From: a virus
Lineage: Duplodnaviria > Caudoviricetes
Virus record (IMG/VR): IMGVR_UViG_3300036855_000026
Location: 1-58,838 of that record
DNA length: 58,838 nucleotides
Reading direction: 5' to 3' (one strand)
In this document: positions 128 through 57,222 of the stretch, piece by piece
Layout: each line of letters opens with the position of its first letter
Position numbering within the stretch: position 1 is the first letter of the stretch
The notes under the pieces: model-generated
What the model was told of the DNA's origin: nothing
The model's database searches: none
The model's input: only the letters and a program-made list of their open reading frames with translations
Position numbers and translations under genes: made by a program

Positions 128-1102
128 CACACCCGCATGACCACCGTCGCGCCCGACCCGGACGCCGACCCGCGCGCGTGGCTGACCTTCCTCGCCGACA
201 CGTTCGGCGGGCGGGCCGACCTGATCGGCTACGTCCAGCGCCTCGCCGGGTATTCGATCACGGGCGCGGTCGCCGACCACGTGTTGCCGTTCTGCTATGG
301 CAGTGGTGCCAACGGGAAAACTGTCCTGTTGGAAGTGCTCGGCGCCATCCTCGGCGACTACGCGCTCACCTCGCCGTCCGGGTTCCTGATGGCGCGTCAA
401 TTCCCGGCGCACGAAACCGAGATAGCGCGATTGTTCGGTGCACGGTTCGTGACCTGTTCGGAGATCAACGAGAAAGACAAATTCGACGAGGCGCGCGTGA
501 AACTACTGACCGGCGGCGACACGATTACCGCCCGGTTTATGCGGCAAGATCATTTCTCGTTCAGACCGTCACACCACCTATGGTTGATGGGCAATTATCA
601 GCCGAGTGTCACGGCCGGTGGCCCCGCATTCTGGCGCCGGTTGCGTGTTATTCCATTCGATCACATCGTGCCCGTGGAGCAGCGGGACGCGGCGCTCGCC
701 GCCTCGTTGATCGCGGCACACGGCGCGGCCATCCTCGCCTGGCTGGTGTCCGGCGCGGTCGCGTACATCCGGAGTGGACTCGACGAACCGGGCGACGTGG
801 TGACCGCGACCGACCACTACGCGCACGACCAAGACAGCGTGGCGCGGTTCGTCGAAGACGCGTGCCGGGTCGGTGGCGGCGACGCCGTGAAACTACGCAC
901 CGGAGTTGTCCGTGCCGCGTATGAGCGATGGTGCGCGAGCGAAGCACTGTCCCCGGTGGACGGGCCGCGCCTCACCATCGCGTTGAAGCTGATCACTGGA
1001 ATCGGTGCTATCCGGTCAAATGGGGCGCGGTTCTACACGGGACTCAGTCTCGCGGACACCTTCAATGGTTCAGCGCTCAACCTTCCGGGTGGCCAAGAAT
1101 GA
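2..1102 (+). CDS. C-terminal part of primase-helicase (P4 alpha/D5-type SF3 helicase); gene starts at 57381 and runs across the junction (~810 aa)
   Basis: Walker A GSGANGKT, motifs IARLFGARFVTCSEI, VKLLTGGDTITARFM and WRRLRVIPF; in frame with 57381 after removing the overlap. Confidence 0.93.
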   Translation, partial: RSDPRVTVRHDQWDADPWALNTPGGVVDLRTGGVRPHDPAERHTRMTTVAPDPDADPRAWLTFLADTFGGRADLIGYVQRLAGYSITGAVADHVLPFCYGSGANGKTVLLEVLGAILGDYALTSPSGFLMARQFPAHETEIARLFGARFVTCSEINEKDKFDEARVKLLTGGDTITARFMRQDHFSFRPSHHLWLMGNYQPSVTAGGPAFWRRLRVIPFDHIVPVEQRDAALAASLIAAHGAAILAWLVSGAVAYIRSGLDEPGDVVTATDHYAHDQDSVARFVEDACRVGGGDAVKLRTGVVRAAYERWCASEALSPVDGPRLTIALKLITGIGAIRSNGARFYTGLSLADTFNGSALNLPGGQE

Positions 1103-5313: not shown

Positions 5314-6954
5314 ATGCCGCACACCGTTGTGCACGCCGACGGACACCACCGAGCCCGGTCACTCGGGTGGCTAGCGCTGGCATGGCTCGAACACTTCTGT
5401 GTACACGGGCCTGGTGACGTGCAAGGCGATCCGGTCGTGCACGGGGACGAACAGAGTGCCTTTGTGGCCGACGCGTACGGGCTGGACGAGGACGGCAGGC
5501 TGTTGTACGACAGCGCTTTCCTGTCCCGCCCCAAAGGCGCGGACAAGTCGGGGCTCGGCGCGCGGCTCGGATTGTTCGAGGCGCTAGGCCCGTGCCGGTT
5601 CGCGGGCTGGGCGAGCGGCGGGGAAACCTACCGCTGGCAAGGTTTCCGCTACACCTACCGTGCCGGTGAGCCGATGGGCCGCGCGATCACCACCCCCTAC
5701 GTCCGGTGCATGGCCACCGAGGAACAACAAACCGGCAACACCTATGACGCCGTGCTGTACAACCTCACAGACGGGCCGTTGGCCGGTACACCCGGTCTCA
5801 GCGCCGGGTTGACCCGCGTCCTGGTGCCCGGCGGCGGCGAGATCACCCCGTCAACGGCGGCGAGTGCGTCCAAAGACGGCGGGAAAGAGACCTTTGTAAT
5901 ATTCGACGAGTCTCATTTGTACAACACCGCCGAGTTGCGGCAGATGTACAAAGTGGTCACCCGGAATTTGCGGAAACGCAAGCGGATCGCGGGTACGTGG
6001 TTCCTGGAAACGACCACGATGTTCGCGCCCGGACACAATTCTGTCGCCGAATCGACGTACGAACTGGCCGAAACGATCAAAGAGGGTCGCGCGCTGCGTT
6101 CGCGGCTGTTTTATGATCACCGGTGGGGCGAGTGTGACGATCTCGCCGACGAACAGGCACTCCGCGCGGCCATTGTGGACGCCTACGGGGACGCGATCGA
6201 GTGGAATGACCTCGATTCGATCGTCAACGAATTCTATGACCCGCGCAGCAACGTCGCCGACAGCCGCCGATATTTCTTGAACGCCCGCACATCGGCATCG
6301 GACGCGTGGTTGGACGCGGCACAGTGGGCGGCATGCACGAAAGCACTGTCCCTGTACGACGATGACACGGTCACGCTCGGGTTTGACGGCAGTGTTCGCG
6401 ATGACTCGACAGCGCTGGTCGCGGCGAGCCTCGAAACCGGGCACGTAGAGGTGCTCGGATGCTGGGAAAAGCCCGATAATCGGGGCGACGACTGGGAAGT
6501 AGACCGGATCGCGGTCGACACCGCCGTCGCCGCCGCGTTCGAGCGTTTCACTGTGGTTGCTTTCTATTGTGATCCGCCGCATTGGCAGGACTATGTGGAC
6601 CGGTGGACACGTGATTTTGGGGATCGTGTCCAGGTGAAAGCGTCGGCGCAGCGACCTTTTGAATGGTGGACGAACCGTCCGAAAGTGATGGTTGATGTGC
6701 TGGCGCGGTTCCATGACGCGGTGATCGACAAGCGTCTGAGCCACGACGGTAGCTCGCTGCTCACGCGGCACGTGCTGAATGCGCGCCGTCGCGCTGGCCG
6801 TACCGGGATCACGATCGCGAAAGAGCACCCGGGCAGTCCCCGGAAAATCGACGCTGCCATGGCCGCTGTCCTCGCCTACGAGGCTAGGGCGGATTCGATC
6901 GCGGCTGGTGTCGGCGTGCGCCGCACAGCGTCCAAACGGCTGTATCGCTTCTGA
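5314..6954 (+). CDS. terL: Terminase large subunit
   Basis: RPKGADKS Walker A-like, FVIFDESH Walker B, LGFDGSVRDDSTALV nuclease motif, KIDAAMAAVLA. Confidence 0.95.
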   Translation: MPHTVVHADGHHRARSLGWLALAWLEHFCVHGPGDVQGDPVVHGDEQSAFVADAYGLDEDGRLLYDSAFLSRPKGADKSGLGARLGLFEALGPCRFAGWASGGETYRWQGFRYTYRAGEPMGRAITTPYVRCMATEEQQTGNTYDAVLYNLTDGPLAGTPGLSAGLTRVLVPGGGEITPSTAASASKDGGKETFVIFDESHLYNTAELRQMYKVVTRNLRKRKRIAGTWFLETTTMFAPGHNSVAESTYELAETIKEGRALRSRLFYDHRWGECDDLADEQALRAAIVDAYGDAIEWNDLDSIVNEFYDPRSNVADSRRYFLNARTSASDAWLDAAQWAACTKALSLYDDDTVTLGFDGSVRDDSTALVAASLETGHVEVLGCWEKPDNRGDDWEVDRIAVDTAVAAAFERFTVVAFYCDPPHWQDYVDRWTRDFGDRVQVKASAQRPFEWWTNRPKVMVDVLARFHDAVIDKRLSHDGSSLLTRHVLNARRRAGRTGITIAKEHPGSPRKIDAAMAAVLAYEARADSIAAGVGVRRTASKRLYRF

Positions 6955-6968
6955 GACGGGGGTCCGTT

Positions 6969-7508
6969 GTGGCCGTTGTCGACTTTACCGGCGTCACGGT
7001 CACCGGCACGTACACGGAGCTGGACGGCTCCCCGGCGATCGGCAATGTGACGTTCGCCGCGCAAGTCACCGGCGCCCTGCTCGACTCCACTGCGGACATC
7101 ATCGTGTTGCCGGACGATCTGACGATCACCCTGGACGCCAACGGTTCCCTGAGCGTCATCCTGCTCGCCACCGACGACCCGAGCGTGTCACCGCAAGGGT
7201 TCACATACCTGGTCACCGAGCATATCGGCCGCGCCATGCGCTCCTACTCGATCCCGGTACCGCTAGGCCCACCCCTCGATCTCCGGTCGGTGGCGCCAGT
7301 CGCCCCCGTCATCCAAGGCCCGTTAACGATCGTGACCAGCGTGAACGGCGTCCGGCCCGACATCAACGGCAACGTGACCATTGATGCGCTCGGCGGCCAC
7401 GGTTCCGCCTGGTTTGTCGATGACGGCGCGCCCGGCGATGTGACCGGGGCCGACCCCGGGGACTACTACCTCGACTGGGTGACCGGTGCGATTTATCAAC
7501 TGAGCTGA
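6969..7508 (+). CDS. Putative fibre base/adaptor protein
   Basis: Beta-rich N domain, VTSVNG motif, C-terminal GSAW...GAP...GDYYLD...GAIYQLS knob. Confidence 0.7.
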   Translation: MAVVDFTGVTVTGTYTELDGSPAIGNVTFAAQVTGALLDSTADIIVLPDDLTITLDANGSLSVILLATDDPSVSPQGFTYLVTEHIGRAMRSYSIPVPLGPPLDLRSVAPVAPVIQGPLTIVTSVNGVRPDINGNVTIDALGGHGSAWFVDDGAPGDVTGADPGDYYLDWVTGAIYQLS

Positions 7509-13943: not shown

Positions 13944-13982
13944 TTCAGTTCACCGACAAAAACAGTGGTGCGGGGAGTCTCC

Positions 13983-15044
13983 ATGCGTGTGCTCGCCATG
14001 GTGCACCTGTATTCCCCGCATCACTGTGCCGGTGCCGAGATGATGATGCACGCGTTGCTCGTGTCCCTCGTGGACGCTGGCCACACGGTCGATGTGGTGC
14101 TGTCGCGCGAACACGTGCGGATCGTCCGGCCCTACAGCGTCGATGGGGTCACCGTGCACCCGCGCGTCGACAAAGGCGACCCGCTGCGCTGGCTCGGTGA
14201 CCCCGACCGGCGACCCGACCTGATCGTCACCCACCTGGAAAACACTGACCGGGCGAGCATTCTCGGTCGCGTGCATCGCATCCCGGTCGTGCATGTCGCG
14301 CACAACACGTTCGAGGCGACGAAAGTCAGCCTGTTGCGGCGCCCCGCGCTCGTAGTGGCCAACAGTCACTGGATGGCGGCAGACCTGGCGGCCTGGTGGA
14401 CCGCGCACGAGCACGACCGGCCAATGCCGCGCATGGCGGTAGTTCATCCGCCGGTCCGGGTCGCCGACTACGCCACCACCGCCATCGGCCCCATGATCAC
14501 CCTGGTCAACGTGACCGAAGCCAAAGGCGCCAGCCTGTTCTACCGGATCGCGCAGCGCCTGCCGCACCGCCAGTTTCTCGGCGTCGGCGGCGCCTACGGG
14601 GAGCAGGATCGCCGCGAGCAGCAGTCCAACGTGACGTTCATCGAACATGTGCCCGGCCACCGGATGCGGGATGCGGTGTACGCGCGTACCCGGGTGCTGC
14701 TCATGCCCTCGCACTATGAGAGCTGGGGCCGCACCGGGATCGAGGCGGCCTGCTCCGGTATCCCCACCATCGCCCACCCGACACCCGGCCTCATTGAGTC
14801 GCTGGGCGACGCGGGCACCTTCGCTGACCGTGACGACCCGGACGAGTGGGTTCGCGCCCTGCGGACGCTGCTAGAGCGGCGCACGTATGCCGCTGCGTCT
14901 CGGCGGGCCCGCGCCCGCGCGCATGCCCTGGACCCGACCGTCGAGCTTGCCCACTGGGTAGAGACCACGGAGGCGATTGGACATGCCAGCGCTCGCACTC
15001 GTGGACGACGTGACCGCGCGCTATCAGGGGACGCTGTCCGCTGA
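13983..15044 (+). CDS. Glycosyltransferase, GT-B/family 4-like
   Basis: MRVLAMVHLY...GAE...GHTVDV; LLMPSHYESWGRTGIEAACSGIPTIA (EX7E motif). Confidence 0.92.
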   Translation: MRVLAMVHLYSPHHCAGAEMMMHALLVSLVDAGHTVDVVLSREHVRIVRPYSVDGVTVHPRVDKGDPLRWLGDPDRRPDLIVTHLENTDRASILGRVHRIPVVHVAHNTFEATKVSLLRRPALVVANSHWMAADLAAWWTAHEHDRPMPRMAVVHPPVRVADYATTAIGPMITLVNVTEAKGASLFYRIAQRLPHRQFLGVGGAYGEQDRREQQSNVTFIEHVPGHRMRDAVYARTRVLLMPSHYESWGRTGIEAACSGIPTIAHPTPGLIESLGDAGTFADRDDPDEWVRALRTLLERRTYAAASRRARARAHALDPTVELAHWVETTEAIGHASARTRGRRDRALSGDAVR

Positions 15045-28924: not shown

Positions 28925-29110
28925 TCAGCCGTCGCCTTTCTCGATCGCCTTGCCCAGCATGGTATAGACCCCTGCTGTTGTCACGTCACCATCCTTAGCG
29001 GAATCAATGGCGGCCAGACGCAATTCTTCGAGGTTTTTCTTCTGCTGAGCTTTCTGTTCAGGCGTCAACTCTGTCACGTCGAATTCCCTTTTCTGCTGCT
29101 GGTACGCCAT
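28925..29110 (-). CDS. Small charged hypothetical protein
   Basis: MAYQQQKREFDVTELTPEQK...; upstream GAAGAAAC. Confidence 0.6.
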   Translation of the reverse strand: MAYQQQKREFDVTELTPEQKAQQKKNLEELRLAAIDSAKDGDVTTAGVYTMLGKAIEKGDG

Positions 29111-30039
29111 GTTTCTTCGAGATCGGGTCGGTGCTGGGCCGCATAGGTGACTTGCTGACATATCTGCTCGTCCCGATCGGACAACCCCGTGTCGTGATTC
29201 ATATAGGTAGCGGTGTAAACGTTCGCCCATAGGTTAATGTCGCGCCATTCGCGGAATCGTTTCTGTGCCGTGGCACCCGATATGCGAAAGCGTGGCGGCA
29301 GATCGCCCCATTTACACTCGTTGATGAGAACGTAAATGATCGCCGCGTAAGTTCTCCGGTCCTCCCGTGGGCGGCCAGACTGCTGCACGGGAACGAACGG
29401 CTTGACGAACGCCCACAAGTCGCCGGAGCACACGTCGACCGATGTCCAGTTGAGACGATGCTGCCGTGCCATTTCGACCCGTGCGGCCTCACACAGTGCC
29501 GCGAGCCGTCCCGCCGTCGCCGCGTCCACCACGAGCGCCACGCGTCCGCCCCCGGCATGGCTGAGTTCGAGGGTCGCGTGCGTGTCCCTCGCCGGGTCCA
29601 CGCTTACCTCCATCACAGTGCCACTGTCCAGCCGGATGCGCCTCATTTTCTGCTGCGTGCTCATGTCGACCCCTTTCAGACTGCCGCCCTGTCGCATCTC
29701 GACTCCCGCCGCGACGAGGTTATTGCGAATCGCGGAGAGAGACCCCTTGGTGTCCGCTTCTATGTCTCGCAGAGTTTCCCCCGCGCGGTAGCGCGTTACG
29801 AGCTCCGCAACTTCGGTGGTGCTGAAGGAGTGTGGCGGCTTACGTGTCGTGCAGTGCTGCTTATCCCAGTCATCTACAAAGGACTCAAGTTCCGCCAAGG
29901 TCATCCCGTTTCGAGCTACATTGTTCCCGCGCAGGGTGCAATACCATTCGTCGTTTTTGCGGTAGGAGGTGGACTGGAACCCCCGGGTCGCTAGTCGACC
30001 TTTGAGCTTCTGGAACCGGCTTGCGCGCGCGGTCAGCAT
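29074..30039 (-). CDS. HTH protein fused to an IS5-type transposase N-terminal (DUF4096-like) domain, no DDE domain
   Basis: YRAGETLRDI...SAIRNNLVAAGVEMR; LWAFVKPFVP..GRPRED..AAIIYVL..C.W.DLP..SGATAQKRFREW. Confidence 0.7.
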   Translation of the reverse strand: MLTARASRFQKLKGRLATRGFQSTSYRKNDEWYCTLRGNNVARNGMTLAELESFVDDWDKQHCTTRKPPHSFSTTEVAELVTRYRAGETLRDIEADTKGSLSAIRNNLVAAGVEMRQGGSLKGVDMSTQQKMRRIRLDSGTVMEVSVDPARDTHATLELSHAGGGRVALVVDAATAGRLAALCEAARVEMARQHRLNWTSVDVCSGDLWAFVKPFVPVQQSGRPREDRRTYAAIIYVLINECKWGDLPPRFRISGATAQKRFREWRDINLWANVYTATYMNHDTGLSDRDEQICQQVTYAAQHRPDLEETWRTSSRKGNST

Positions 30040-30236: not shown

Positions 30237-31064
30237 CTACTGCGTCACGAGGTTTGCCCGCTCCACGCGCCATGCCTCGGACACGATCCACGGCAGATAG
30301 TCAGTCACGCTGACATCGACACCCGTGTCACCACGGCAGCCACTCGGCCCGGTGGGGTTCGCGTCGCCGTCACGACTGACCGACCCGGCCAGGAACCAGC
30401 GTCCGAAGTGGCGTACTAGCACGGGACTTCCGGAGTCACCCGCGCACTGCTGGCCGCCGTTCTCCGCAGGGCCGTTACAGAATTCGCTCGGGTGGATCAT
30501 CCCGCCGGTACACAAGTTGGACGCCACCACCCGAGTGTCCAACTGTTGCAACGTGGTGGGCAAGGTAGCCCGGGTGCACGCGCTCGGCTCGACGGTGCAA
30601 CCGAAACCGATGCTCCGTACCTGGTCACCAGGCGCGGGCTTGCGCAAGGTGATTGGGATCGGCTCGTACGGCACGGAACGCGTGAGCCTCAAGAGCGCGA
30701 TGTCGCCATCGGCCGTGTCCTCGTTCCACTGCGGATTGACGATGATCTCGCTTACCCCCGTGACGGTGCCACCGGCCGTGTCGCTGTTCGAGCCAACCCG
30801 GACGTGCAGCTGTGCCGCAGTGATCGGCTCCTCTTTCAATCCCACGCAGTCAGCCCCGGTTACCACGAGATCGTGCGTGATCAGCGATGCGCCGCAGGTG
30901 AAATGATCCACGCCGCCAACGATGATGCTCAGCGACGCCATAAACGGGTACTGCTGTGTGGCCGGTTGACCACCTACGATCGCGTTAGCCGGTCCCGCGA
31001 TCAGCGCCGTACCCACCATCGCCGCGCCAATGACGGAGGCGGCGGCGACTAATTTTCTGCGCAT
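30237..31064 (-). CDS. Secreted trypsin-like (S1) protease homologue with catalytic His replaced by Asp
   Basis: Signal peptide ...PANA|IVGG, CGASLI, TGADC in place of TAAHC, DIALLRL, GDSGSP. Confidence 0.92.
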   Translation of the reverse strand: MRRKLVAAASVIGAAMVGTALIAGPANAIVGGQPATQQYPFMASLSIIVGGVDHFTCGASLITHDLVVTGADCVGLKEEPITAAQLHVRVGSNSDTAGGTVTGVSEIIVNPQWNEDTADGDIALLRLTRSVPYEPIPITLRKPAPGDQVRSIGFGCTVEPSACTRATLPTTLQQLDTRVVASNLCTGGMIHPSEFCNGPAENGGQQCAGDSGSPVLVRHFGRWFLAGSVSRDGDANPTGPSGCRGDTGVDVSVTDYLPWIVSEAWRVERANLVTQ

Positions 31065-33218: not shown

Positions 33219-34049
33219 ATGGCAGTGGGTACGACACGCGGGAAGCGGCGTTTGGGTCGGTTCGTGAAACCGATCCGGATCCGCTCTGGGTTGAAGCCAG
33301 AGACTGTGGCCACGTTGGCCCGGTGCTCGCGGCAGACTGTGACGCGTCTGGAGTCCGGCGACAATTTGCCGCGCATCCACCTCTTTATGAAGCTCTTGGA
33401 CGTCATCAACGCGACCGACGCCGAGAGCGAAAAGGCTTTGGAACTGTGGGAAGTCGCCGACGCCAGCATGTCGTCGATCGAGCGCGCGCACGACCTGCCC
33501 GGCAAGTACCTTCGATTCCGGCTGGACGAAAGCGAAGCGATCGAAGAAAGAACGCTCGACGGATCGATGATCCCGGGCATGCTCCAGACTCCTGACTACG
33601 CGTTCGCTAGCTCTCGCCGCGTGCAAAGTAGTCATTCGGCCGATGAGCGTCGCGAACGTCAGCAGTTGCTTACGCGTGAGGTCAATCCGCTCCGCTTGCA
33701 CGCACTCATTGACGAGGCGGCATTGCGGCGACTGGTCGGTGGTCCCGGTGTCATGAGTGCCCAGTGTGATCACCTGTTGCGAATGGGCAGACGGCCCAAC
33801 ATCACGATTCAGGTCATACCGTTTGAGCTCGGCGCTTACGGTGCCATAGGTCCCGTGGTCTTCTTGAGCTTTCCGGAAAAGGATGAGCCGGTTTCGCTCT
33901 ATGTGGACGGCGTGACATCCATGCAAACGGTGGTAGACCCCACGGATGTGTCGGCGCTTTCGGCTGTGTGGAACGAGGTCGCTGACGCTGCTCCATCGGC
34001 CGAACGGTCGGCGGAGATCATCCAGTCAATGAAGGATTCACTGAGTTAA
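33219..34049 (+). CDS. XRE HTH regulator with DUF5753 domain (WhiJ/Scr1-like)
   Basis: RRLGR..IRIRSGL...VTRLESG; IPGMLQTPDYA; LIDEAALRRLVGG..VM; NITIQVIPF. Confidence 0.93.
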   Translation: MAVGTTRGKRRLGRFVKPIRIRSGLKPETVATLARCSRQTVTRLESGDNLPRIHLFMKLLDVINATDAESEKALELWEVADASMSSIERAHDLPGKYLRFRLDESEAIEERTLDGSMIPGMLQTPDYAFASSRRVQSSHSADERRERQQLLTREVNPLRLHALIDEAALRRLVGGPGVMSAQCDHLLRMGRRPNITIQVIPFELGAYGAIGPVVFLSFPEKDEPVSLYVDGVTSMQTVVDPTDVSALSAVWNEVADAAPSAERSAEIIQSMKDSLS

Positions 34050-34051
34050 TC

Positions 34052-34249
34052 ATGGACGACAAACCGCGAATCTGGCGCAAGAGTAGCCGTAGCAACAATC
34101 CGAACCAGTCCTGTGTCGAGCTGTCCGTTGCTCCGACCAGGACATTCGTCCGCGACACCAAGAACAGGGCCGGTGGGATGCTCGAATTCGGTGCTGAGCA
34201 CTGGGCAGAGTTCCTGACCATGGCAAAGAACGCGAAGCCGATCAACTAG
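34052..34249 (+). CDS. DUF397 protein (Scr2-like)
   Basis: WRKSSRS...CVEL...VRDTKN..GG.LEF...W..FL. Confidence 0.95.
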   Translation: MDDKPRIWRKSSRSNNPNQSCVELSVAPTRTFVRDTKNRAGGMLEFGAEHWAEFLTMAKNAKPIN

Positions 34250-34256
34250 CCGCCCT

Positions 34257-34307
34257 AGCACGGGACCCTGGTCACTCCCCACTCGAATGGGACCAGGGTC
34301 CCGTGCT
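34257..34307. terminator. Bidirectional terminator hairpin
   Basis: 17-bp perfect IR AGCACGGGACCCTGGTC/GACCAGGGTCCCGTGCT between convergent genes. Confidence 0.8.
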
Positions 34308-34356
34308 GTGCCGCACAAGTAGCCCCGCTCCGGCCACCAGGCGACCACGTCTGTTG

Positions 34357-34530
34357 CTAGGGCGGCGTGCCCGCCGACTCCGGCACCCGGCACCACGGAC
34401 ACCGCTCAGTCCGGACCTCGATGTCCCGCATCCTGACCAGCGTGCGACGCCACACCCGCACCGCCGCGACGATCAACGCCGCCAGTTCGACTTCCAGCAC
34501 GATCAGGCTCACCGCCGCCAAGATCATCAT
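34357..34530 (-). CDS. Small membrane protein with CxxC
   Basis: Hydrophobic N-terminus, CPWC; ATGA coupling. Confidence 0.55.
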   Translation of the reverse strand: MMILAAVSLIVLEVELAALIVAAVRVWRRTLVRMRDIEVRTERCPWCRVPESAGTPP

Positions 34531-34865
34531 TTGCGCACGGCCTCGTCCGCAGCCATCAGGTTCGCTTGCAGCTCCATGAAGCTCTGATGGTGTGCCTCGA
34601 ACACCCTGTCCGCGTCCGGGGCGAGCGTGCACAGTGCCACCATGGCCGCCGTGATCAACCCGCACACTTGCGCGATCACCGGGTCCTGATTCCAGACGTT
34701 GCCCTCACGTGTCCTCCACCAGTCCCGATAGGACTCGGCGACCGCCCCCACCTGCGTCGTGAGTTCGATCATCTGGGAACCGAACGGCGTGTCCGACAAC
34801 GGACTCATCGTGTCACGGCGGAAGTTCGCTACCCGGTCCACGTCCGCCCACTGTTCCATGTTCAT
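34527..34865 (-). CDS. MazG-like protein with degenerate acidic motif
   Basis: LTTQVGAVAE...QVCGLITAAMVAL...DADRVF follows the actinophage MazG-like pattern. Confidence 0.55.
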   Translation of the reverse strand: MNMEQWADVDRVANFRRDTMSPLSDTPFGSQMIELTTQVGAVAESYRDWWRTREGNVWNQDPVIAQVCGLITAAMVALCTLAPDADRVFEAHHQSFMELQANLMAADEAVRK

Positions 34866-35293
34866 CGCAGCCCCCTGCCCACAGTGTTCGCGACCCGGCG
34901 GAAACCGGGCTCGTCATAGCGGATCGCGAGTAACTGCGCGACCATCGCCGTCTCATGTGGACCGCCGTGCGGGACAGGGTGCGCACACATCATCGTCCAC
35001 CGTGGTAGCTCGATGACGTTGCCGCTGTAGCCGTACTCCAGACGGAACAGGCCACCGGACGAACCGCGCACGAGAACGAAATGGTTGGCGCCGTAGAACG
35101 TCCGGTCATCGTCGGTGAGCAGGCTCGCCCAGACCGCCCGCGACCGGGCCTGTTCCGCGAGCCATTCTAGGTCACTGTCACGCGGGCATCCGAGCATCCG
35201 ATAGCTCCGCGCGAGCACGTCTTGCAGATTGACGGATGCGTTGTCGAGCGGCTCGAAACCGTCCGGCCGAAACCATCTCGCGAAAGGATCCAT
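34862..35293 (-). CDS. Hypothetical protein with CAHP motif
   Basis: LLTDDDR..FVLVRGSSG..FRL..GYSGNV..CAHP..AQLLAIRYDEPGFRRVAN. Confidence 0.75.
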   Translation of the reverse strand: MDPFARWFRPDGFEPLDNASVNLQDVLARSYRMLGCPRDSDLEWLAEQARSRAVWASLLTDDDRTFYGANHFVLVRGSSGGLFRLEYGYSGNVIELPRWTMMCAHPVPHGGPHETAMVAQLLAIRYDEPGFRRVANTVGRGLR

Positions 35294-35297
35294 GGTG

Positions 35298-35582
35298 TCA
35301 GCCGCCCGTCAAGGGCGCGGTATAGAGGATGCGGGGCACCGTCTCATCGAAACGGTGCAACTGCGTTCCGCCCACGTTGTCGGCGTCCGGCGCGTACGCC
35401 AGGAACCCTTGTCCGCCAGGGCCCGCAAGCGACGTGAACATGGCCTGCGCGGCGATCACCTCATCGGGAACGGTGGTACGCCACGTGAGTGTCTTCCCGT
35501 CCGGGCATTCCATGATGTGAATCTCTTCGGCGTCCGCGATGAACATGATGTCAAGGTCAGGCTCAGCAAGTGTGGCAGTCAT
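35298..35582 (-). CDS. Small protein with C-terminal Gly-Gly
   Basis: 94 aa ending RILYTAPLTGG-stop; RBS GAAGGGA. Confidence 0.8.
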   Translation of the reverse strand: MTATLAEPDLDIMFIADAEEIHIMECPDGKTLTWRTTVPDEVIAAQAMFTSLAGPGGQGFLAYAPDADNVGGTQLHRFDETVPRILYTAPLTGG

Positions 35583-35585
35583 TGA

Positions 35586-35777
35586 TCAGATCCCTTCGGG
35601 TTGGGTGGTGAGGTCGGGTGCGTGCATCGGGCAGCCGAGGTCGATGACATAGGCGACGTTGCCGTGTTCGTCGCGAGCACCGCCCATGTAGCCGCGTCCG
35701 CCCGCGTTGTCCATACGAGGGCACAGGCAGCCCGCGTCATGCGCGGCGTCGCTGCCTGGCGGCGGAGTGTCGGTCAC
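35586..35777 (-). CDS. Small Cys/His metal-binding protein
   Basis: PGSDAA..AGCLCP.MDN..GRG...CPMH; RBS GAGGA. Confidence 0.75.
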   Translation of the reverse strand: MTDTPPPGSDAAHDAGCLCPRMDNAGGRGYMGGARDEHGNVAYVIDLGCPMHAPDLTTQPEGI

Positions 35778-35785
35778 GGCGTCCT

Positions 35786-36010
35786 CTATCCAAAGTCGGC
35801 GATGATCTTTGTGTTGGGCGGCAGCGGAGCCGCCACGGCTAAGAGCGCGGGGCCGCTGTTGCCGCGTACCGCGACGGTCGCTTGCCACCAATGCCGTCCG
35901 CCGCGATCATCACCGAGATAGAGACAGTGGACAGGTGCGCTGTATCCGTCCGGGTAGACGGCGCGCACATCGACGGGGCGGTCAGGTTCGGGCGGTGGGG
36001 ACGAGGGCAT
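35786..36010 (-). CDS. Hypothetical protein
   Basis: Fills the operon gap; VRAVYPDG motif. Confidence 0.6.
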   Translation of the reverse strand: MPSSPPPEPDRPVDVRAVYPDGYSAPVHCLYLGDDRGGRHWWQATVAVRGNSGPALLAVAAPLPPNTKIIADFG

Positions 36011-36013
36011 CGG

Positions 36014-36475
36014 CTATCGCTTCCGCCCTTTGGTCACTGTGGACGGTTTCGTGGTGCGCCCGGCAGCGCGTTGGGTCGCGGTCGTGCGGCGCTGTTTCTG
36101 CTCTGCCGCTTTTGCTTCCGCCAGGGCAAGATCGATCTCATAGTCGCGGATCTCGCGGCGGAGCAGGCGCGCGCCCTCGATGTAATAGGCGCTGTCGATA
36201 TAGTAAAAGTTGCGGTACTCGCCCTCGATCTGTTTGACGATCTTGACGCCCTGGCAACCGTTCACGCACCGGTAGGTTTTCTGGAACGGCTCAGTCGACC
36301 GGTTCCGAATCCAGCCTTTGTGTTGCCGCTTCCAATGGTGACCTTCCTCGCGGCACTCGATGTACGGTGCCTTGCTCGGGTCGGCCAGGTAAGCGAGTTT
36401 GATCAAATCGTCGTCGTCGACTTCGGCGGGAGCGGCAGCCTGGAACACGGGTTTAGTGACTGTCTTCGAGACCAT
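36014..36475 (-). CDS. Zinc-ribbon protein with basic tail
   Basis: CREEGHHW...CVNGC. Confidence 0.7.
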   Translation of the reverse strand: MVSKTVTKPVFQAAAPAEVDDDDLIKLAYLADPSKAPYIECREEGHHWKRQHKGWIRNRSTEPFQKTYRCVNGCQGVKIVKQIEGEYRNFYYIDSAYYIEGARLLRREIRDYEIDLALAEAKAAEQKQRRTTATQRAAGRTTKPSTVTKGRKR

Positions 36476-36478
36476 GTC

Positions 36479-36997
36479 CTACGCACCCCGCTTCGCGGCG
36501 ACACTCGCGAGTGGACGTTTCGCCTTGGACGGTTTCGAGATCAACGCTGGTTGATCCTCACTCTCCGGACTGTCCTCTGTGGCGTCATCGTCGGCATCGT
36601 CAGATTCCTCCGTCACCCGATGCCGCTGGGTGTCTTTGTTGGCCTGCGCATACGCGGCGGCGAGGTCGGCCGGTATCCGCCCCATGTCACCGAGATCAGG
36701 CCACCCGTTGTCCCGTGCCCACTCGCGCATGTCGGTGCGAAGCTGCTTTTTGTCTTTACCCAGCCACCATGGGGGACCTGTACTCGTGAACGCGTTCGGC
36801 GGCTTGGCGCGGGTTGTCACGATCGCGGGCGGCTTGCCGGGGCGGCGGGCAAACTCCGCCCATTCGCGGACGATGTCCGCTAGCTCGGCGTGATGTGCTT
36901 CGCACAGATCCATCTCGTTGTCGAGACGGCCAAGGCCAAACAGGAACGTTCCTATCGCGACATCCTGACAGAGATCACATACCAGCATTTGTGCCAT
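36479..36997 (-). CDS. lsr2: Lsr2-like protein (Cys-containing variant)
   Basis: CDLC...FGL...EMDLCEAH; MREWARDNGW...GRIP...AY. Confidence 0.82.
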   Translation of the reverse strand: MAQMLVCDLCQDVAIGTFLFGLGRLDNEMDLCEAHHAELADIVREWAEFARRPGKPPAIVTTRAKPPNAFTSTGPPWWLGKDKKQLRTDMREWARDNGWPDLGDMGRIPADLAAAYAQANKDTQRHRVTEESDDADDDATEDSPESEDQPALISKPSKAKRPLASVAAKRGA

Positions 36998-37051
36998 GGT
37001 CGGGGACGGCTCCCTCGTGAATAGACGGCGTGGGGACGGGGAGGGACACCG

Positions 37052-37393
37052 TTAGGCGCGCATGGACCGCGCGTAGGCTTCTTGGACCACGATGGGAATG
37101 CGGCCACGGTCGGACACCTCATAGCCCTGATCGCGGGCCCATTCGCGGACAGCGGTCACGTCATTTCTGGGCGCGGGAACGGCTTTGGCCTGAGCTAGTC
37201 CGCGTCGCCGCTTGCCCCCCATACGTCGCGCCGCGTCGGTAAATTCGGCGATGCCGTCGCGGAGCCGCGCCGCTTCCTCCTCGGTCAGATCAATCTCGTA
37301 TTCGGCGCCGTCCAGTCCGAAAGCGACGGTTTCGTCCGCCGGAAGGTCCCGTTGGAGATCGCTATACCGCTCGATCGTTATTTTTTCCGCCAC
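37052..37393 (-). CDS. lsr2: Lsr2 nucleoid-associated protein
   Basis: ADETVAFGLDGAEYEIDL...VREWARDQGYEVSDRGRIP. Confidence 0.95.
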   Translation of the reverse strand: MAEKITIERYSDLQRDLPADETVAFGLDGAEYEIDLTEEEAARLRDGIAEFTDAARRMGGKRRRGLAQAKAVPAPRNDVTAVREWARDQGYEVSDRGRIPIVVQEAYARSMRA

Positions 37394-37449
37394 GCTCGCC
37401 GCCCTCTGTTGCCCGCTGAGTGATTCGGCCATTGAACACCTAGCGTCTA

Positions 37450-37477
37450 CGTCTGGCAATGGTGGATTGCCACACGA
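37450..37477 (-). promoter_or_regulatory. Operator/-35 element shared with the repressor-Cro region
   Basis: 26/28 identity to the reverse complement of 49564-49591; TGGCAAT-N5-ATTGCCA. Confidence 0.75.
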
Positions 37478-37735
37478 TTTACGTGGTCACGCAGGTTGTG
37501 TGCCTATTTCGGATGATCTACCGGTCGGTAATGGCGCGTGGCCTGCCGATTCAGTAGGTCCAACCGATCACAGATTTGCGGCACATGGTGAATGGCAATC
37601 GAACGGATGATCGATTGATCAGGGGCTGCGGTCGCCCGCTTTTTAGTTGTGCGCGCAACGAGCCGTCGCCGAGAGCGTGTGCGTGTGCACATCGGGGCGT
37701 GTGACCTGCGAGATAGATCAACTGGGTAACGGTTC

Positions 37736-37750
37736 GTCGTACGGTACGAC
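37736..37750. promoter_or_regulatory. Palindromic operator GTCGTAC-N-GTACGAC, copy 1
   Basis: GTCGTACGGTACGAC containing a TANNNT -10. Confidence 0.65.
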
Positions 37751-37798
37751 ATACCAGGGAGAGGGGCAGCCGCCCCCACCGCCCGGAAGGTGTGCACC

Positions 37799-38161
37799 AT
37801 GGCTTGGACTAATTCGCAACTCATCGAATTCTTCGATGCCTACCTACAGACGGCACTGTGGGCGAGCACGGACAACCGGCGCGCACTGGCCGCTGAATAC
37901 GGCGTTGACGACTTCGCAGAGAGCGCGCGGGAAACCCTGCTCGCCGACGCCACCGCGTTCGCCCGGGACAACGCGGCCGACCTGGCCAACCTGAACCCGG
38001 CGCGGTGCGGACACGACTTCTGGCTGAACCGCTGTCGGCACGGTGCCGGATTCTGGGACAGGGGCCTCGGCGAGGTCGGCGACCGGCTGTCCGCCGCGAG
38101 CCGCGTCTTCGGTGACCCGTCGCTCTACATCGGGGACGACGGCATGATCTACGTGGGCTGA
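37799..38161 (+). CDS. Conserved-type phage hypothetical protein
   Basis: YLQTALW...GHDFWLNRCRHGAGFWDRG; RBS GGAAGG. Confidence 0.85.
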   Translation: MAWTNSQLIEFFDAYLQTALWASTDNRRALAAEYGVDDFAESARETLLADATAFARDNAADLANLNPARCGHDFWLNRCRHGAGFWDRGLGEVGDRLSAASRVFGDPSLYIGDDGMIYVG

Positions 38162-43832: not shown

Positions 43833-44020
43833 GCGCCGCTGCGTTCCTCCGCAGACACCCGAGCGAAGTGACCACCATGCTTCTCGTCCTCGCCCTGGTC
43901 GCCGCGTTCCTGGTCCCCGCTAGCCGCACGCTGCTTGTCGGCGACGTGTTCGGCCCGGTCGCCATCTACCTCCTGTCCACCCTGTCCGCGTTCGGCCACT
44001 TCCTCGGGGGTCTGCTGTGA
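43829..44020 (+). CDS. Small membrane protein
   Basis: Two hydrophobic segments; GTGA overlaps on both sides. Confidence 0.6.
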   Translation: MSAAAFLRRHPSEVTTMLLVLALVAAFLVPASRTLLVGDVFGPVAIYLLSTLSAFGHFLGGLL

Positions 44021-45558
44021 GCACCCGCCCCGCCGCCATCACCCACGTGACCAACGCAGTGATCTACCTCCGACTCTCCGACTTGCACGCCGACGACCTC
44101 GACGAGGACGGCAACGGCAAGACGTTCGCCGACCGCGAAACCAAGGTCCGAGAACTCGCCGTGCGACTCGGGTGGAACGTCGTCAAGGTGATCACCGAAA
44201 ATGACATGTTCACCCGGAACGGGAAGCAACGCAACGCGTCCGCGTTCAAACGGAAGATGATGGCGTTGCCCGGCGGCGGGACCGCCATGCGGGTAGACCG
44301 CCCCGGGTTCCGGTCGATTCTCGCCATGCTCACCGACGGCCGCGCAAACGCCCTGCTGGCGGAAGATCTCGACAGGTGTATGCGTGACCCCCGCGACCTC
44401 GAAGATCTGATCGACATCGCCGAGGCTCACAAGATCAACGTGAGGTCCCTGTCCGGGTCGTTGACGTTCACCGACGGCGGCACGGACGGCGAAATCACCA
44501 TGGCCAGGATGATGGTCACCATGGCGAACAAGTCCAGTCGTGACACGTCGCGTCGTGTCCGCGCTGCCCGGGAGCGGATGGCAGGCGAGGAAGACTATCG
44601 GGGTGGGCAGCGGCCCTACGGTTTCGAGGTGGACCGCGTGACGCCACGCGCGGACGAGGCCGCGATCATCGAACAGGCATCCCGGCGCGTGCTGCTCATC
44701 GACGGACGCCAAGGCCACCGGGCGGACTCCGGACAGCGCACGTCGCTGCGCTCCCTCGCCCGGGAACTTCGCGAAGCAGACGCCCCGTCGCCGACCGGGC
44801 GACCGTGGACACCCGCGATGCTGCGCGGCGTGCTGCTCCGCCCGCGCAACGCGGCGCGGAAAACGTTTCGTGGCGAGGAAATCGGGGATGCGCCCTGGGA
44901 GCCGATTGTGCCGCTGGACGTGTTCCGGGAGGTGCAACGCATCCTCGACGACCCGGCGCGCAGCACAGTCGGCGGCAGGGCGCCCCGGTGGCTGGGCAGC
45001 GGGATCTACCGATGTGGTATTTGCGACGTGACGAGTCTCCAGGTGGGTGGCGGCGCCGGACACGCACCCCGCTACGTCTGTAAGCGCATCAGTCATCTGT
45101 CCCGCAACGCGGAACGCACCGACGTATGGGTGCGGGAGAACCTGATCAACTTCCTGTCCCTGCCCGGCGTGATCGACACGTTGTGTATCGAGCAAGAGTC
45201 CACTGTGGATGCTCCCGCGTTGCGGGCGGAAGCGCGGGCGTTGCGGCTGAAACTGAACGGGATCGCCGCTGACTACGCTCTGGACCTCTTGGACCGCGAA
45301 CAGATGTTGACCGTGTCGGCGACCGGGCGCGCGCGCCTCGCCGAGATCCGCGAACAACTCTCGAACGCGGTCAGCGAATCGCCGTTCGCGCCGTTCATCG
45401 ACGCCGACGACATCGGCGCCACGTTCGACGACCAGCCGCTGAGTGCCCGCCGCGTCATCGTCGACAGTCTGATGACGGTCACGCTCAAGCCGACCGGGCA
45501 CCAAGGGTCCGTGTTCAAGCCACAATCGGTCTTGTGTGAGCGCCGCGCCGCTGCTTAG
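44017..45558 (+). CDS. int: Large serine recombinase (integrase)
   Basis: IYLRLS catalytic Ser, RPGF...DLDR..RD, recombinase domain PYGF, zinc ribbon CGIC...YVC, coiled coil. Confidence 0.95.
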   Translation: MSTRPAAITHVTNAVIYLRLSDLHADDLDEDGNGKTFADRETKVRELAVRLGWNVVKVITENDMFTRNGKQRNASAFKRKMMALPGGGTAMRVDRPGFRSILAMLTDGRANALLAEDLDRCMRDPRDLEDLIDIAEAHKINVRSLSGSLTFTDGGTDGEITMARMMVTMANKSSRDTSRRVRAARERMAGEEDYRGGQRPYGFEVDRVTPRADEAAIIEQASRRVLLIDGRQGHRADSGQRTSLRSLARELREADAPSPTGRPWTPAMLRGVLLRPRNAARKTFRGEEIGDAPWEPIVPLDVFREVQRILDDPARSTVGGRAPRWLGSGIYRCGICDVTSLQVGGGAGHAPRYVCKRISHLSRNAERTDVWVRENLINFLSLPGVIDTLCIEQESTVDAPALRAEARALRLKLNGIAADYALDLLDREQMLTVSATGRARLAEIREQLSNAVSESPFAPFIDADDIGATFDDQPLSARRVIVDSLMTVTLKPTGHQGSVFKPQSVLCERRAAA

Positions 45559-56819: not shown

Positions 56820-56968
56820 ACAGTCCACTAGAACCGAGCGCTGACATTCGGCAATTCTCGTCGGCCATGCGGCAAATGTTTGTGGCCTTGACGTTGGAAG
56901 GATTCACCGAAAAACAGGCACTCGTGATCATTGGTCAAGTGCTGGCCGGTCGATCACCCGGTAAATGA
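56816..56968 (+). CDS. Small hypothetical protein
   Basis: MRQMFVAL..EGFTEKQAL.IIG. Confidence 0.65.
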   Translation: MNSPLEPSADIRQFSSAMRQMFVALTLEGFTEKQALVIIGQVLAGRSPGK

Positions 56969-56988
56969 ACAAGGAAAGGAATGCCACT

Positions 56989-57222
56989 GTGGACAATCAG
57001 CAGACGCTGATCACCGGCTATCGGGAACTCAACCCGGCCGAAATCGACGCCGTCAACCTGATCAAAGGCGCCGAAATCGACCTCGGTCACCTGTGGCGGG
57101 ATTTCTTCGAGTCCGGCACCGTCGATGTTGACCGCCGGTGGATGGCGGTCGCGAAAACCCACTTTGAGGAAGGGTTCTCCGCGTTCGTCCGCGCCATCGC
57201 GCAACCCGTGCCGAGGTTCTGA
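56989..57222 (+). CDS. acb2: Acb2-like anti-CBASS cyclic-nucleotide sponge
   Basis: MDNQ...GYREL...EID..N.IK...RW.A.AKT...VRAIAQP; RBS AAAGGA. Confidence 0.85.
   Translation: MDNQQTLITGYRELNPAEIDAVNLIKGAEIDLGHLWRDFFESGTVDVDRRWMAVAKTHFEEGFSAFVRAIAQPVPRF

Follow-up and report, generated by a model that had tools for sequence, protein, structure and literature searches.

Two small adjoining genes on a viral genome, the first encoding a protein that ends in Gly-Gly and the second a protein with a single conserved cysteine, raise the question of whether their products work together and by what chemistry. The genes lie in the IMG/VR virus record IMGVR_UViG_3300036855_000026, which is complete, has direct repeats at its termini and amounts to 58,838 bp at 64.8% G+C; the whole stretch was analyzed and is called the window below. 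On its minus strand gpA (35298..35582) encodes a putative ubiquitin-like modifier of 94 aa with the C-terminus RILYTAPLTGG, for which the Gly93 and Gly94 codons (35301-35306) and the TGA stop (35298-35300) together occupy 35298..35306. The start of gpB (34862..35293, minus strand, 143 aa) follows 4 nt past the gpA stop. An earlier reading of this DNA, made from the sequence alone, had described a 94-aa protein ending in PLTGG followed 4 nt later by a motif-bearing protein of 143 aa, and it was correct in all of these details, the strand having been left unstated.

Our interpretation, which we regard as evenly balanced between right and wrong, is that gpA and gpB form an E1-less cassette of mobile elements made up of a ubiquitin-like protein (Ubl) and an E2-like protein, probably charged by an E1-like enzyme of the host. 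A pair of the ubiquitin type fits a Gly-Gly end kept in 69/69 gpA relatives, an invariant or nearly invariant Cys, Asn and Gln in gpB, an E2/RWD-like scaffold, the linkage of the two genes and the predicted pose of the two proteins. From these observations we infer that gpB is E2-like, that the covalent steps occur and that a host E1 takes part.

A family of small proteins ending in Gly-Gly

A word-based search with the gpA of the window retrieved only two relatives, at 63% identity and both ending in LTGG. When a profile was built that included the genes upstream of gpB-like loci, the family grew to 69 proteins of 54-172 aa, down to ∼25% identity, which sets its size at no fewer than 69 clusters at 90% identity. 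All 69 carry Gly-Gly directly before the stop codon with nothing beyond it, mostly in the form P-x-[LM]-x-G-G, and the tail residues ahead of the two glycines vary across relatives. The same end was observed in 14/14 loci from IMG/VR, in a 595-kb phage and in 2/2 plasmid loci, all described below. Judged by its reading frame, gpA needs no removal of a propeptide, its Gly-Gly end being free from the outset.

The conserved core of gpA spans residues ∼20-94 and contains the near-invariant residues Gly28/Asp29 (aligned as GD), Trp34, Glu41, Ala45, Phe49, Ala62 and Phe78. The order of elements appears to be strand-strand-helix-strand-strand-strand-tail over ∼75 residues, as in ubiquitin, and from this conservation pattern we infer a beta-grasp fold. 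The structure neighbours of gpA in a protein atlas are unnamed clusters. Identity with prokaryotic ubiquitin-like protein (Pup) was considered and rejected, as Pup ends in GGQ or GGE and gpA ends in GG.

Conservation and predicted fold of the cysteine protein

When 1.84 billion representatives were searched exhaustively with HMMER, 254 gpB clusters were recovered at E≤1e-3, which makes this a family of at least 254 clusters at 50% identity. The similarity spans residues ∼45-137 of gpB and lies at the C-terminus of proteins of 66-456 aa. In the gpB of the window itself the N-terminal ∼35 residues are variable and the conserved domain covers ∼40-140. The motifs of gpB are GNV (91-93), CAHP (103-106), AQLL (119-122), DE (127-128), F131 and AN (135-136). 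In an alignment of 150 members two residues are present in 150/150, namely Cys103, the proposed nucleophile (codon 34985..34987, minus strand), and Gln120 on the long helix (34934..34936, minus strand). Asn92 of the GNV motif (35018..35020, minus strand), 11 residues ahead of Cys103, is found in 149/150 members, as is Leu59, and His105 in 135/150. The Cys and the Asn also persist in all gpB-like open reading frames (ORFs) of the loci discussed below, the Asn in 14/14 from IMG/VR and 2/2 from plasmids. The residues that the sequence-only reading had picked out, including the terminal Gly-Gly and the Cys, are the conserved columns of both families well beyond chance (69/69 and 150/150), and the Gly-Gly end, for which it had proposed a test of invariance, is kept in all 69 relatives.

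Neither gpA nor gpB of the window matches anything in Pfam, PHROGs, NCBIfam or PADLOC, and the two would define new protein families. Typical members of both likewise lack a PHROG match, save two weak rows (E ∼0.005) for one gpB-like ORF. Sequence-profile searches of the PDB returned chance rows only, and looking up gpB in the protein atlas gave unnamed clusters only. Weak Pfam rows for LTXXQ and DUF6400 in a few gpB members fall on the 'LLSLL..Q' helix and were judged uninformative. Two further ideas were dropped: a lysine-poor 'desert' in gpB as a clue to its function, as low-GC relatives have many lysines in the domain, and a zinc site, for which gpB offers one conserved Cys and one variable His only.

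Most relatives of gpB have an extra N-terminal region (P0011-P0154; L006, 1877-2995; L007, 4197-5309) that often opens with 'MP', contains many Thr, Asn and Trp residues and joins the gpB domain through an Arg/Glu/Ala-rich helix. This region has no Pfam match and is absent from the gpB of the window. Forms of 370 aa begin with a Cys-rich, zinc-ribbon-like stretch.

An AlphaFold2 (AF2) model of gpB built from 150 sequences has a mean predicted local distance difference test score (pLDDT) of 84.4, and its ten-residue blocks between 41 and 140 score 81-98. The model contains helices 39-58 and 61-70, a four-stranded meander (strands 72-76, 82-86, 93-96 and 100-103), a loop at 104-112 and the helix 113-134. 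Assignment of the model by DSSP puts Cys103 at the end of strand 4, ahead of the loop and the last helix. Going by element order, Cys103 of the model lies where the catalytic cysteine of an E2 sits, between strand 4 and the next helix.

A search of 48,161 chains that is independent of Foldseek listed 11 rows titled E2 or RWD among its top 20. These are RWDD2 (Z 4.8, root mean square deviation (rmsd) 4.2, 93 aligned), Ubc9 (Z 4.5), the Serratia CdnG-E2 chain 8hsb_B (Z 3.0, rmsd 5.2, 90 aligned), the GCN2 RWD domain twice, RWDD1, UBE2F, UBE2S, Ube2W, UBE2E1 and UBE2G2. Five more of the top 20 (BRISC chain C, FANCL three times and VPS37A) we take to be of E2, UEV or RWD type. Because a Z under 8 can reflect a common arrangement of elements, we take the fold of gpB as UBC/RWD-like while regarding it as unproven. 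The sequence-only reading had suggested an unrecognised ligase or peptidase, and with E2, RWD and UEV folds nearest to gpB a transfer enzyme suits the data better than a peptidase, which fits less well.

When the gpB model was searched against BFVD, the best matches were two unnamed entries that, by their length, are probably the two copies from Virus Rctr197k. The third best (E 0.068, probability 0.89) was A0A2L0UZL2, a 397-aa uncharacterised protein of the cultured jumbo phage Atu_ph07 of Agrobacterium, which makes it a candidate for a distant relative of gpB in a phage that can be grown.

Predicted complex of gpA and gpB

Complexes were predicted with residues 36-143 of gpB (150-row alignment) and gpA (69-row alignment). 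The interaction prediction score from aligned errors (ipSAE) reached 0.73, 0.72 and 0.75, as against 0.00 for the best control. The ipSAE mark used is reached by 58/80 solved complexes and 2/110 mismatched pairs, a calibration that is approximate here since custom alignments were used. The runs agree in ≥91% of contacts and the pLDDT of the partners is ≥81. The predicted interface comprises residues 47-63, 90-91, 103-108 and 111-136 of gpB and residues 25-29, 61-74, 86 and 88-94 of gpA, and it includes Cys103 of gpB as well as Gly93 and Gly94 of gpA. Twelve of the 17 most conserved gpB positions fall within it. The tail contacts with the lowest error pair gpA Leu91 with gpB Ala104, His105 and Gln120, and gpA Thr92 with His105; for Gln120-Leu91 the expected error is 1.0 Å. 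In the complex model a sheet face of gpA packs on the gpB helix that follows the Cys loop, a packing that, as we see it, recalls the closed E2∼ubiquitin arrangement. The model supports binding of gpA to gpB in a predicted non-covalent pose, and docking of the Gly-Gly tail at the Cys, as the sequence-only reading had envisaged, is predicted in a complex that passes its controls.

The strongest direct computational result is one of binding rather than chemistry, and this result also suits a pair that acts without forming a covalent bond. In such a pair gpA would be a plug, a chaperone or an antitoxin-like partner seated in a groove of gpB, or the complex would serve as a decoy or binder of host Ubl defence machinery. 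We consider this unlikely. It gains from the placement of the most conserved gpB residues at the gpA interface, from the lack of an encoded activating enzyme, and from a gene order (small, closely spaced genes on phages and plasmids, the smaller one first) that is also seen in type II toxin-antitoxin pairs. Binding alone, however, can hardly explain a Gly-Gly end that persists in every relative despite a varying tail before it, and a single Cys that is invariant in cytosolic proteins and adjoins that end points to chemistry. In addition, gpA has no recognisable antitoxin-type DNA-binding domain and no PADLOC match.

Linkage of the two genes across phages and plasmids

Linkage was assessed in both directions. 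With gpB as the starting point, seven loci emerged from JGI metagenomes; two of them are cut by contig ends and hence unassessable, and 5/5 of the remainder (L002, L004-L007) have a gpA-like ORF with a terminal GG immediately before the gpB-like gene. Starting from a typical gpA, tblastn of INPHARED found Virus Rctr197k (197 kb; L009) and an uncultured phage of 595 kb (L010), and a gpB-domain ORF is next downstream in 2/2. A scan of IMG/VR with the typical gpA found 14 loci, whose contigs measure 29-197 kb and whose own G+C is 45-67%, and a gpB-domain ORF is downstream in 14/14; one of these is on the same contig as L007 and was counted once. Finally, tblastn of PLSDB showed that 11 Bradyrhizobium plasmid records match gpA, and both of the two examined have the pair. 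Counting the window, 23/23 distinct assessable loci have both genes on one strand, the gpA-like gene shortly before the gpB-like one, and the gene adjacency to which the sequence-only reading had attached weight proved general. The start of gpB lies between -14 and +17 nt from the gpA stop in 13/20 other loci, a count that leaves out the two plasmid loci, and in the remaining seven the two are 128-668 nt apart. When the neighbourhoods of the window and nine loci were compared all against all, no third common gene emerged.

The plasmid pairs consist of a 73-aa protein ending in PRLVGG and, 18 or 48 nt later, a gpB-like protein of ∼140 aa with a hidden Markov model E-value of ∼3e-27. They are carried by pUSDA123-1 of B. 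japonicum USDA 123 (L027) and p195_1 of Bradyrhizobium sp. 195 (L028), and the strain that carries the former copy (QIH92_53600 and QIH92_53595) is in culture. The carriers of the cassette are temperate phages, large lytic-type phages and plasmids. The cassette is not phage-specific, as Bradyrhizobium plasmids carry one too; the earlier suggestion that gpA is a phage Ubl-like modifier gains partial support from the conservation of the Gly-Gly and the Cys and from the linkage. On these large rhizobial plasmids the surroundings of the cassettes include insertion sequence (IS) elements, genes for tyrosine recombinases and one for an AbiEi antitoxin, and p195_1 has two places that match gpA.

In two loci a second, more divergent gpB-like paralogue occurs 1-2 kb downstream of the pair (L009, Virus Rctr197k, 6237-6974; L020, 5132-6067), giving a single gpA with two Cys-domain proteins. 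A CRISPR repeat region is annotated ∼1.5 kb upstream in L009.

Several searches came back empty. The window region, gpA and gpB had no megablast or tblastn match in INPHARED (50,697 phage records), nor did tblastn of a typical gpB (P0014) return anything from this collection. Pattern scans of IMG/VR with the gpA subfamily of the window and with gpB found nothing, and the same was true of pattern scans of 185,579 species-representative genomes with gpB and with the typical gpA. Because Bradyrhizobium plasmids carry the cassette, the empty genome scans tell more of the narrowness of the patterns than of true absence.

Proposed mechanism and points that weigh against it

In the mechanism that we propose, gpA would act as a small modifier-like protein with a ready, free Gly-Gly end, and gpB as a minimal E2-like carrier in which a UBC/RWD-like domain presents Cys103 flanked by Asn92 and Gln120. 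The sheet face of gpA would bind gpB and its tail would lie along the long gpB helix, the Gly-Gly reaching Cys103. An enzyme outside the cassette, most likely a host adenylyltransferase of the MoeB/ThiF/MoeZ type, would activate the gpA carboxylate with ATP; to our knowledge such enzymes are nearly universal and act on beta-grasp carriers that end in GG. Activated gpA would then form a thioester on Cys103 and pass from there to an amino group of a target protein. Asn92 may shape or stabilise the active site, and the variable N-terminal region of gpB-like proteins is a likely means of target recognition. The biological role could be counter-defence, a prophage- or plasmid-borne defence, or host takeover; hijacking of a host E1, a decoy function and a link to the Acb2 gene, as put forward in the sequence-only reading, are further candidate roles.

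A more far-reaching version of this proposal, which we put forward tentatively and think rather less likely to hold than to fail, is that the cassette represents the first ubiquitin-type conjugation system of bacterial viruses. In it a host sulfur-carrier E1 (MoeB/ThiF/MoeZ) would charge the phage or plasmid Ubl, the Ubl would pass directly from its adenylate to the Cys of the minimal E2-like protein, and it would end up on proteins of the host or of rival phages that the variable N-terminal domain of the E2-like protein selects. To date, accounts of ubiquitin-like conjugation in bacteria have presented it as a means by which hosts fight phages, as in Bil, Bub and type II CBASS (cyclic oligonucleotide-based antiphage signaling systems). 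If the proposal is true, phages and plasmids use ubiquitin-like chemistry themselves, reduced to two small proteins without an E1 of their own, which raises the biochemical question of what activates a free Gly-Gly end when E1 is absent. A literature search, to which subscription-only papers and supplements were not open, found no description of a phage or plasmid pair of Ubl and E2-like protein lacking an E1.

A number of observations weigh against an E1-less Ubl and E2-like cassette. The first concern activation. A six-frame search of the 58,838-bp genome gave no match to ThiF (PF00899) or Prok-JAB (PF14464), although the same procedure detected ThiF in 14/14 control genomes and Prok-JAB in 9/14, and the sequence-only reading was right that neither an E1 nor a JAB is visible. 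Pfam searches of 79 ORFs and PHROGs searches of 58 ORFs of the window also contain neither, and both are absent from the 10-12-kb neighbourhoods of four metagenome loci (by Pfam) and of two plasmid loci (by annotation). These absences agree with a cassette that has no E1 of its own. A free carboxylate, however, cannot form a thioester unactivated, and with no enzyme for this step encoded we have to invoke an E1-like enzyme of the host.

Other points concern the fold and family of gpA. An AF2 model of gpA from 3 sequences has a pLDDT of 46, and only strands 21-25 and 31-35 and helix 39-53 are assigned in it. No ubiquitin, ThiS or MoaD family of Pfam, PF02597 included, matches any of the 69 members at E≤1. 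The gpA-like protein of Virus Rctr197k, which is outside the 69-member set and looks like a tandem duplicate, ends in PG and not in GG.

For gpB, Foldseek of the model against the PDB found nothing at E≤1e-3. Its weak top rows (the Mad1 C-terminal domain, Ndc80/Spc24-25, Csm1 and MIND) are kinetochore proteins that are presumably of RWD type, and a second look at this list yielded Z≤2.4 only. The best Z of the independent search, 4.8, is below the best Z of 7-8 that is typical for models without a clear Foldseek match. Among the 25 listed of 92 Pfam families that match the 150 gpB members at E≤1 there is no UQ_con, RWD, Prok-E2 or CBASS/Cap2 E2 family, and for nine further members PADLOC gave zero matches and NCBIfam two weak, unrelated rows far under the cut-off. 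The HPN motif is lacking in gpB, which has Asn92 (GNV) 11 residues before the Cys and, in most members, His105 after it. The classical His is likewise missing from some E2-like families of bacteria (PMC1779556).

Residues near the Cys are less constant than the Cys itself. Gln120 is kept across the loci except in the copy of the 595-kb phage (L010), where it is absent. His105 is replaced in 15/150 representatives and in 5/14 IMG/VR loci, where Gln, Asn or Ala takes its place; the two Bradyrhizobium copies and L010 have Val there. In the CxHP motif it is the Cys that is invariant (150/150) and not the His (135/150).

This variation also bears on the view of gpB as a peptidase or deconjugase of the Cys-His kind, which might for instance remove Ubl marks of the host, with gpA as a product-like regulator or substrate mimic. 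In favor of a peptidase, the Cys-x-His-Pro motif is predicted to lie beside a bound Gly-Gly tail, and a protease activity of an E2 that depends on a nearby His is documented in 10.1101/2022.05.25.493364. We consider a peptidase very improbable, because His105 has been dispensable in evolution while the Cys, the Asn and, except in L010, the Gln have stayed; moreover, no papain-like or other peptidase fold is found among the structural matches, and gpA has no extension to cleave.

Comparison with known systems

The E1-less Ubl and E2-like cassette that we favor most resembles the Ubl-E2 step of Bil and other bacterial ubiquitination operons and of E2-CBASS, with sequence membership in none of them. 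Bil (BilABCD, the '6d' or CEHH type of Iyer) likewise combines a small modifier, which uses its C-terminal glycine, with a small E2-like protein that has one catalytic Cys, and both Bil and the cassette occur in settings of phage-bacterium conflict. Unlike the cassette, which has neither and whose gpA is made mature, Bil always has its own E1 and JAB peptidase and its Ubl needs trimming. No sequence similarity to Bil is detectable. Bacterial E2-like proteins are described in PMC1779556 as having a conserved His C-terminal to the Cys, and PMC10557695 gives Cys138 and His151 for BilB, whereas the His is non-essential in the gpB of the cassette.

In E2-CBASS the E2 works without an E1 and holds a C-terminal Gly tail, as described in 10.1101/2022.05.25.493364 and PMC12948482, and the former reports that a protease activity of the E2 itself first removes the residue after the glycine. 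This cleavage presumably supplies the bond energy. The cassette shares with E2-CBASS an E2-fold protein that, without an E1, holds the glycine tail of its partner at a Cys, and the Serratia CdnG-E2 is among the structural matches of gpB given above. It differs in its partner, which in E2-CBASS is a cyclase of 46 kDa and in the cassette the 94-aa gpA, and in having neither a cGAS/DncV-like nucleotidyltransferase (CD-NTase) nor an effector; PADLOC finds no CBASS match for gpA or gpB. Since gpA has nothing after its Gly-Gly, an energy source other than the cleavage seen in E2-CBASS would be needed, a further point to be counted against our interpretation.

The MoaD-MoaE and ThiS systems are similar to the cassette in gene layout, with a small GG-ended protein encoded immediately upstream of a partner of ∼140-150 aa, and in the last strand and tail. 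The tail of such a carrier enters its partner protein, and the E1-like enzyme needed for activation has its gene at another site. A sulfur-carrier pair with this logic would have gpA thiocarboxylated by E1-like and sulfurtransferase machinery of the host, its tail inserted into gpB, and the sulfur passed by Cys103 to a small molecule or nucleic acid. The exact GG end present from synthesis, with no processing peptidase, speaks for such a pair, as E. coli MoaD is made in this way and ThiS likewise, and so does the position of the small gene, which directly precedes that of a ∼140-aa partner while the E1 is encoded elsewhere, a layout like that of moaD-moaE, which are 1 nt apart. The tail-in-pocket geometry predicted by the complex model is also compatible with it. 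An hhalign comparison of the gpA profile with E. coli MoaD aligns the last strand and tail (..FD..h.h.PP.TGG), although not significantly (Prob 0.9%), and of the protein atlas clusters with a Pfam family the closest is ThiS, although 0.77 is a weak value. Against these likenesses, 0/69 gpA members match a ThiS or MoaD Pfam family at E≤1, and the gpB profile is unrelated to E. coli MoaE (hhalign Prob 0.09%), the sole acceptor that was compared directly. The nearest folds of gpB are E2, RWD and UEV rather than those of a known sulfur-acceptor enzyme, its UBC/RWD-like domain carries an invariant Cys, Asn and Gln, and there is little room for a substrate site because the conserved surface of the ∼100-residue gpB domain mostly holds gpA. 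The carriers are mobile elements, with no cofactor or sulfur context and no sulfur-metabolism gene beside the cassette in any locus. On balance we find a sulfur-carrier pair distinctly unlikely.

A phage protein of the beta-grasp fold with a conserved C-terminal glycine is described in PMC1779556, namely the Ubl TAPI of lambdoid and T1 tail assembly. TAPI differs from gpA in being encoded in a tail-assembly block, fused to a further domain and paired with peptidases (JAB/NlpC TAPK), whereas gpA is among early and regulatory genes and its partner is a Cys protein and not a peptidase.

NCBIfam contains models for PRTRC systems, which are ThiF-related cassettes with a Ubl-like protein C. Membership in such a system finds no basis here, as gpA and gpB have no NCBIfam match and the phage has no ThiF.

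Genome context of the cassette

Searches of the window with Pfam and PHROGs identified virion genes for a terminase, an SPP1-type portal, capsid, tape-measure and tail proteins; a GH25 lysin and a serine integrase (44017-45555) are also encoded. Judged by this gene make-up the phage appears to be a temperate siphovirus of an actinomycete, and the DUF397/DUF5753 and Lsr2 genes described below suggest a Streptomyces-like type of host. Among sequencing runs, two DNA runs from soil metagenomes, one of them possibly the source sample, were listed as containing the sequence, and no RNA run was listed.

Both gpA and gpB have coding-like codon-position G+C (0.77 and 0.76 at third positions, 0.48 and 0.49 at second positions). 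They are part of a tightly packed leftward string of genes that begins at two Lsr2-like genes and converges on an XRE/DUF397 pair, a setting of early and regulatory genes rather than virion genes. Upstream of gpA an ORF at 35586..35891 (minus strand), the true start of which is uncertain, has its stop 3 nt before the gpA start and matches only phrog_13324, weakly (E 0.0076). Downstream, the start of a 112-aa ORF at 34527..34865 (minus strand), with no family match in Pfam or PHROGs, overlaps the gpB stop by 4 nt. These two ORFs are tightly packed with the pair yet lie outside the conserved cassette, as they are not common to related loci. A promoter and terminator scan of 34200-37900 performed no better than on shuffled sequence.

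The two consecutive genes for Lsr2-like nucleoid-associated proteins at the head of the leftward string are located at 37052-37459 and 36479-36997 (both minus strand), the second having a weaker match to the dimerisation domain; an Lsr2-like gene is near the cassette in locus L004 as well. At the other end of the string a regulator of the XRE type with a DUF5753 domain (33219-34049, plus strand, E 1.4e-41) is followed after 2 nt by a DUF397 protein (34052-34249, plus strand, E 9.3e-17). Such XRE/DUF5753 and DUF397 pairs are typical of Streptomyces, and this one is phage-borne.

Between the lysin gene and the regulatory region the window carries cargo that is unusual for a phage, in that a protein with DUF4096 (IS4/IS5 transposase-like) and helix-turn-helix domains (29077-30039, minus strand) adjoins a trypsin-family serine protease (30240-31064, minus strand, E 1.2e-30). 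A glycosyltransferase of the GT4 family (13965-15041, plus strand), which weakly matches 'GT4 in conflict systems', is located directly 3' of the major capsid gene. The first ORF of the record (137-1099, plus strand) has a match to a DNA polymerase/primase PHROG of phages that is confined to the C-terminal part of the latter (536-843 of 854), and the gene may run across the ends of the record as cut. Near the other end an 85-aa protein (56965-57219, plus strand) contains the Acb2/Tad1 hairpin domain PF24729 (E 6.4e-15), in agreement with the Acb2 gene that the sequence-only reading had mentioned, and is likely a cyclic-nucleotide sponge.

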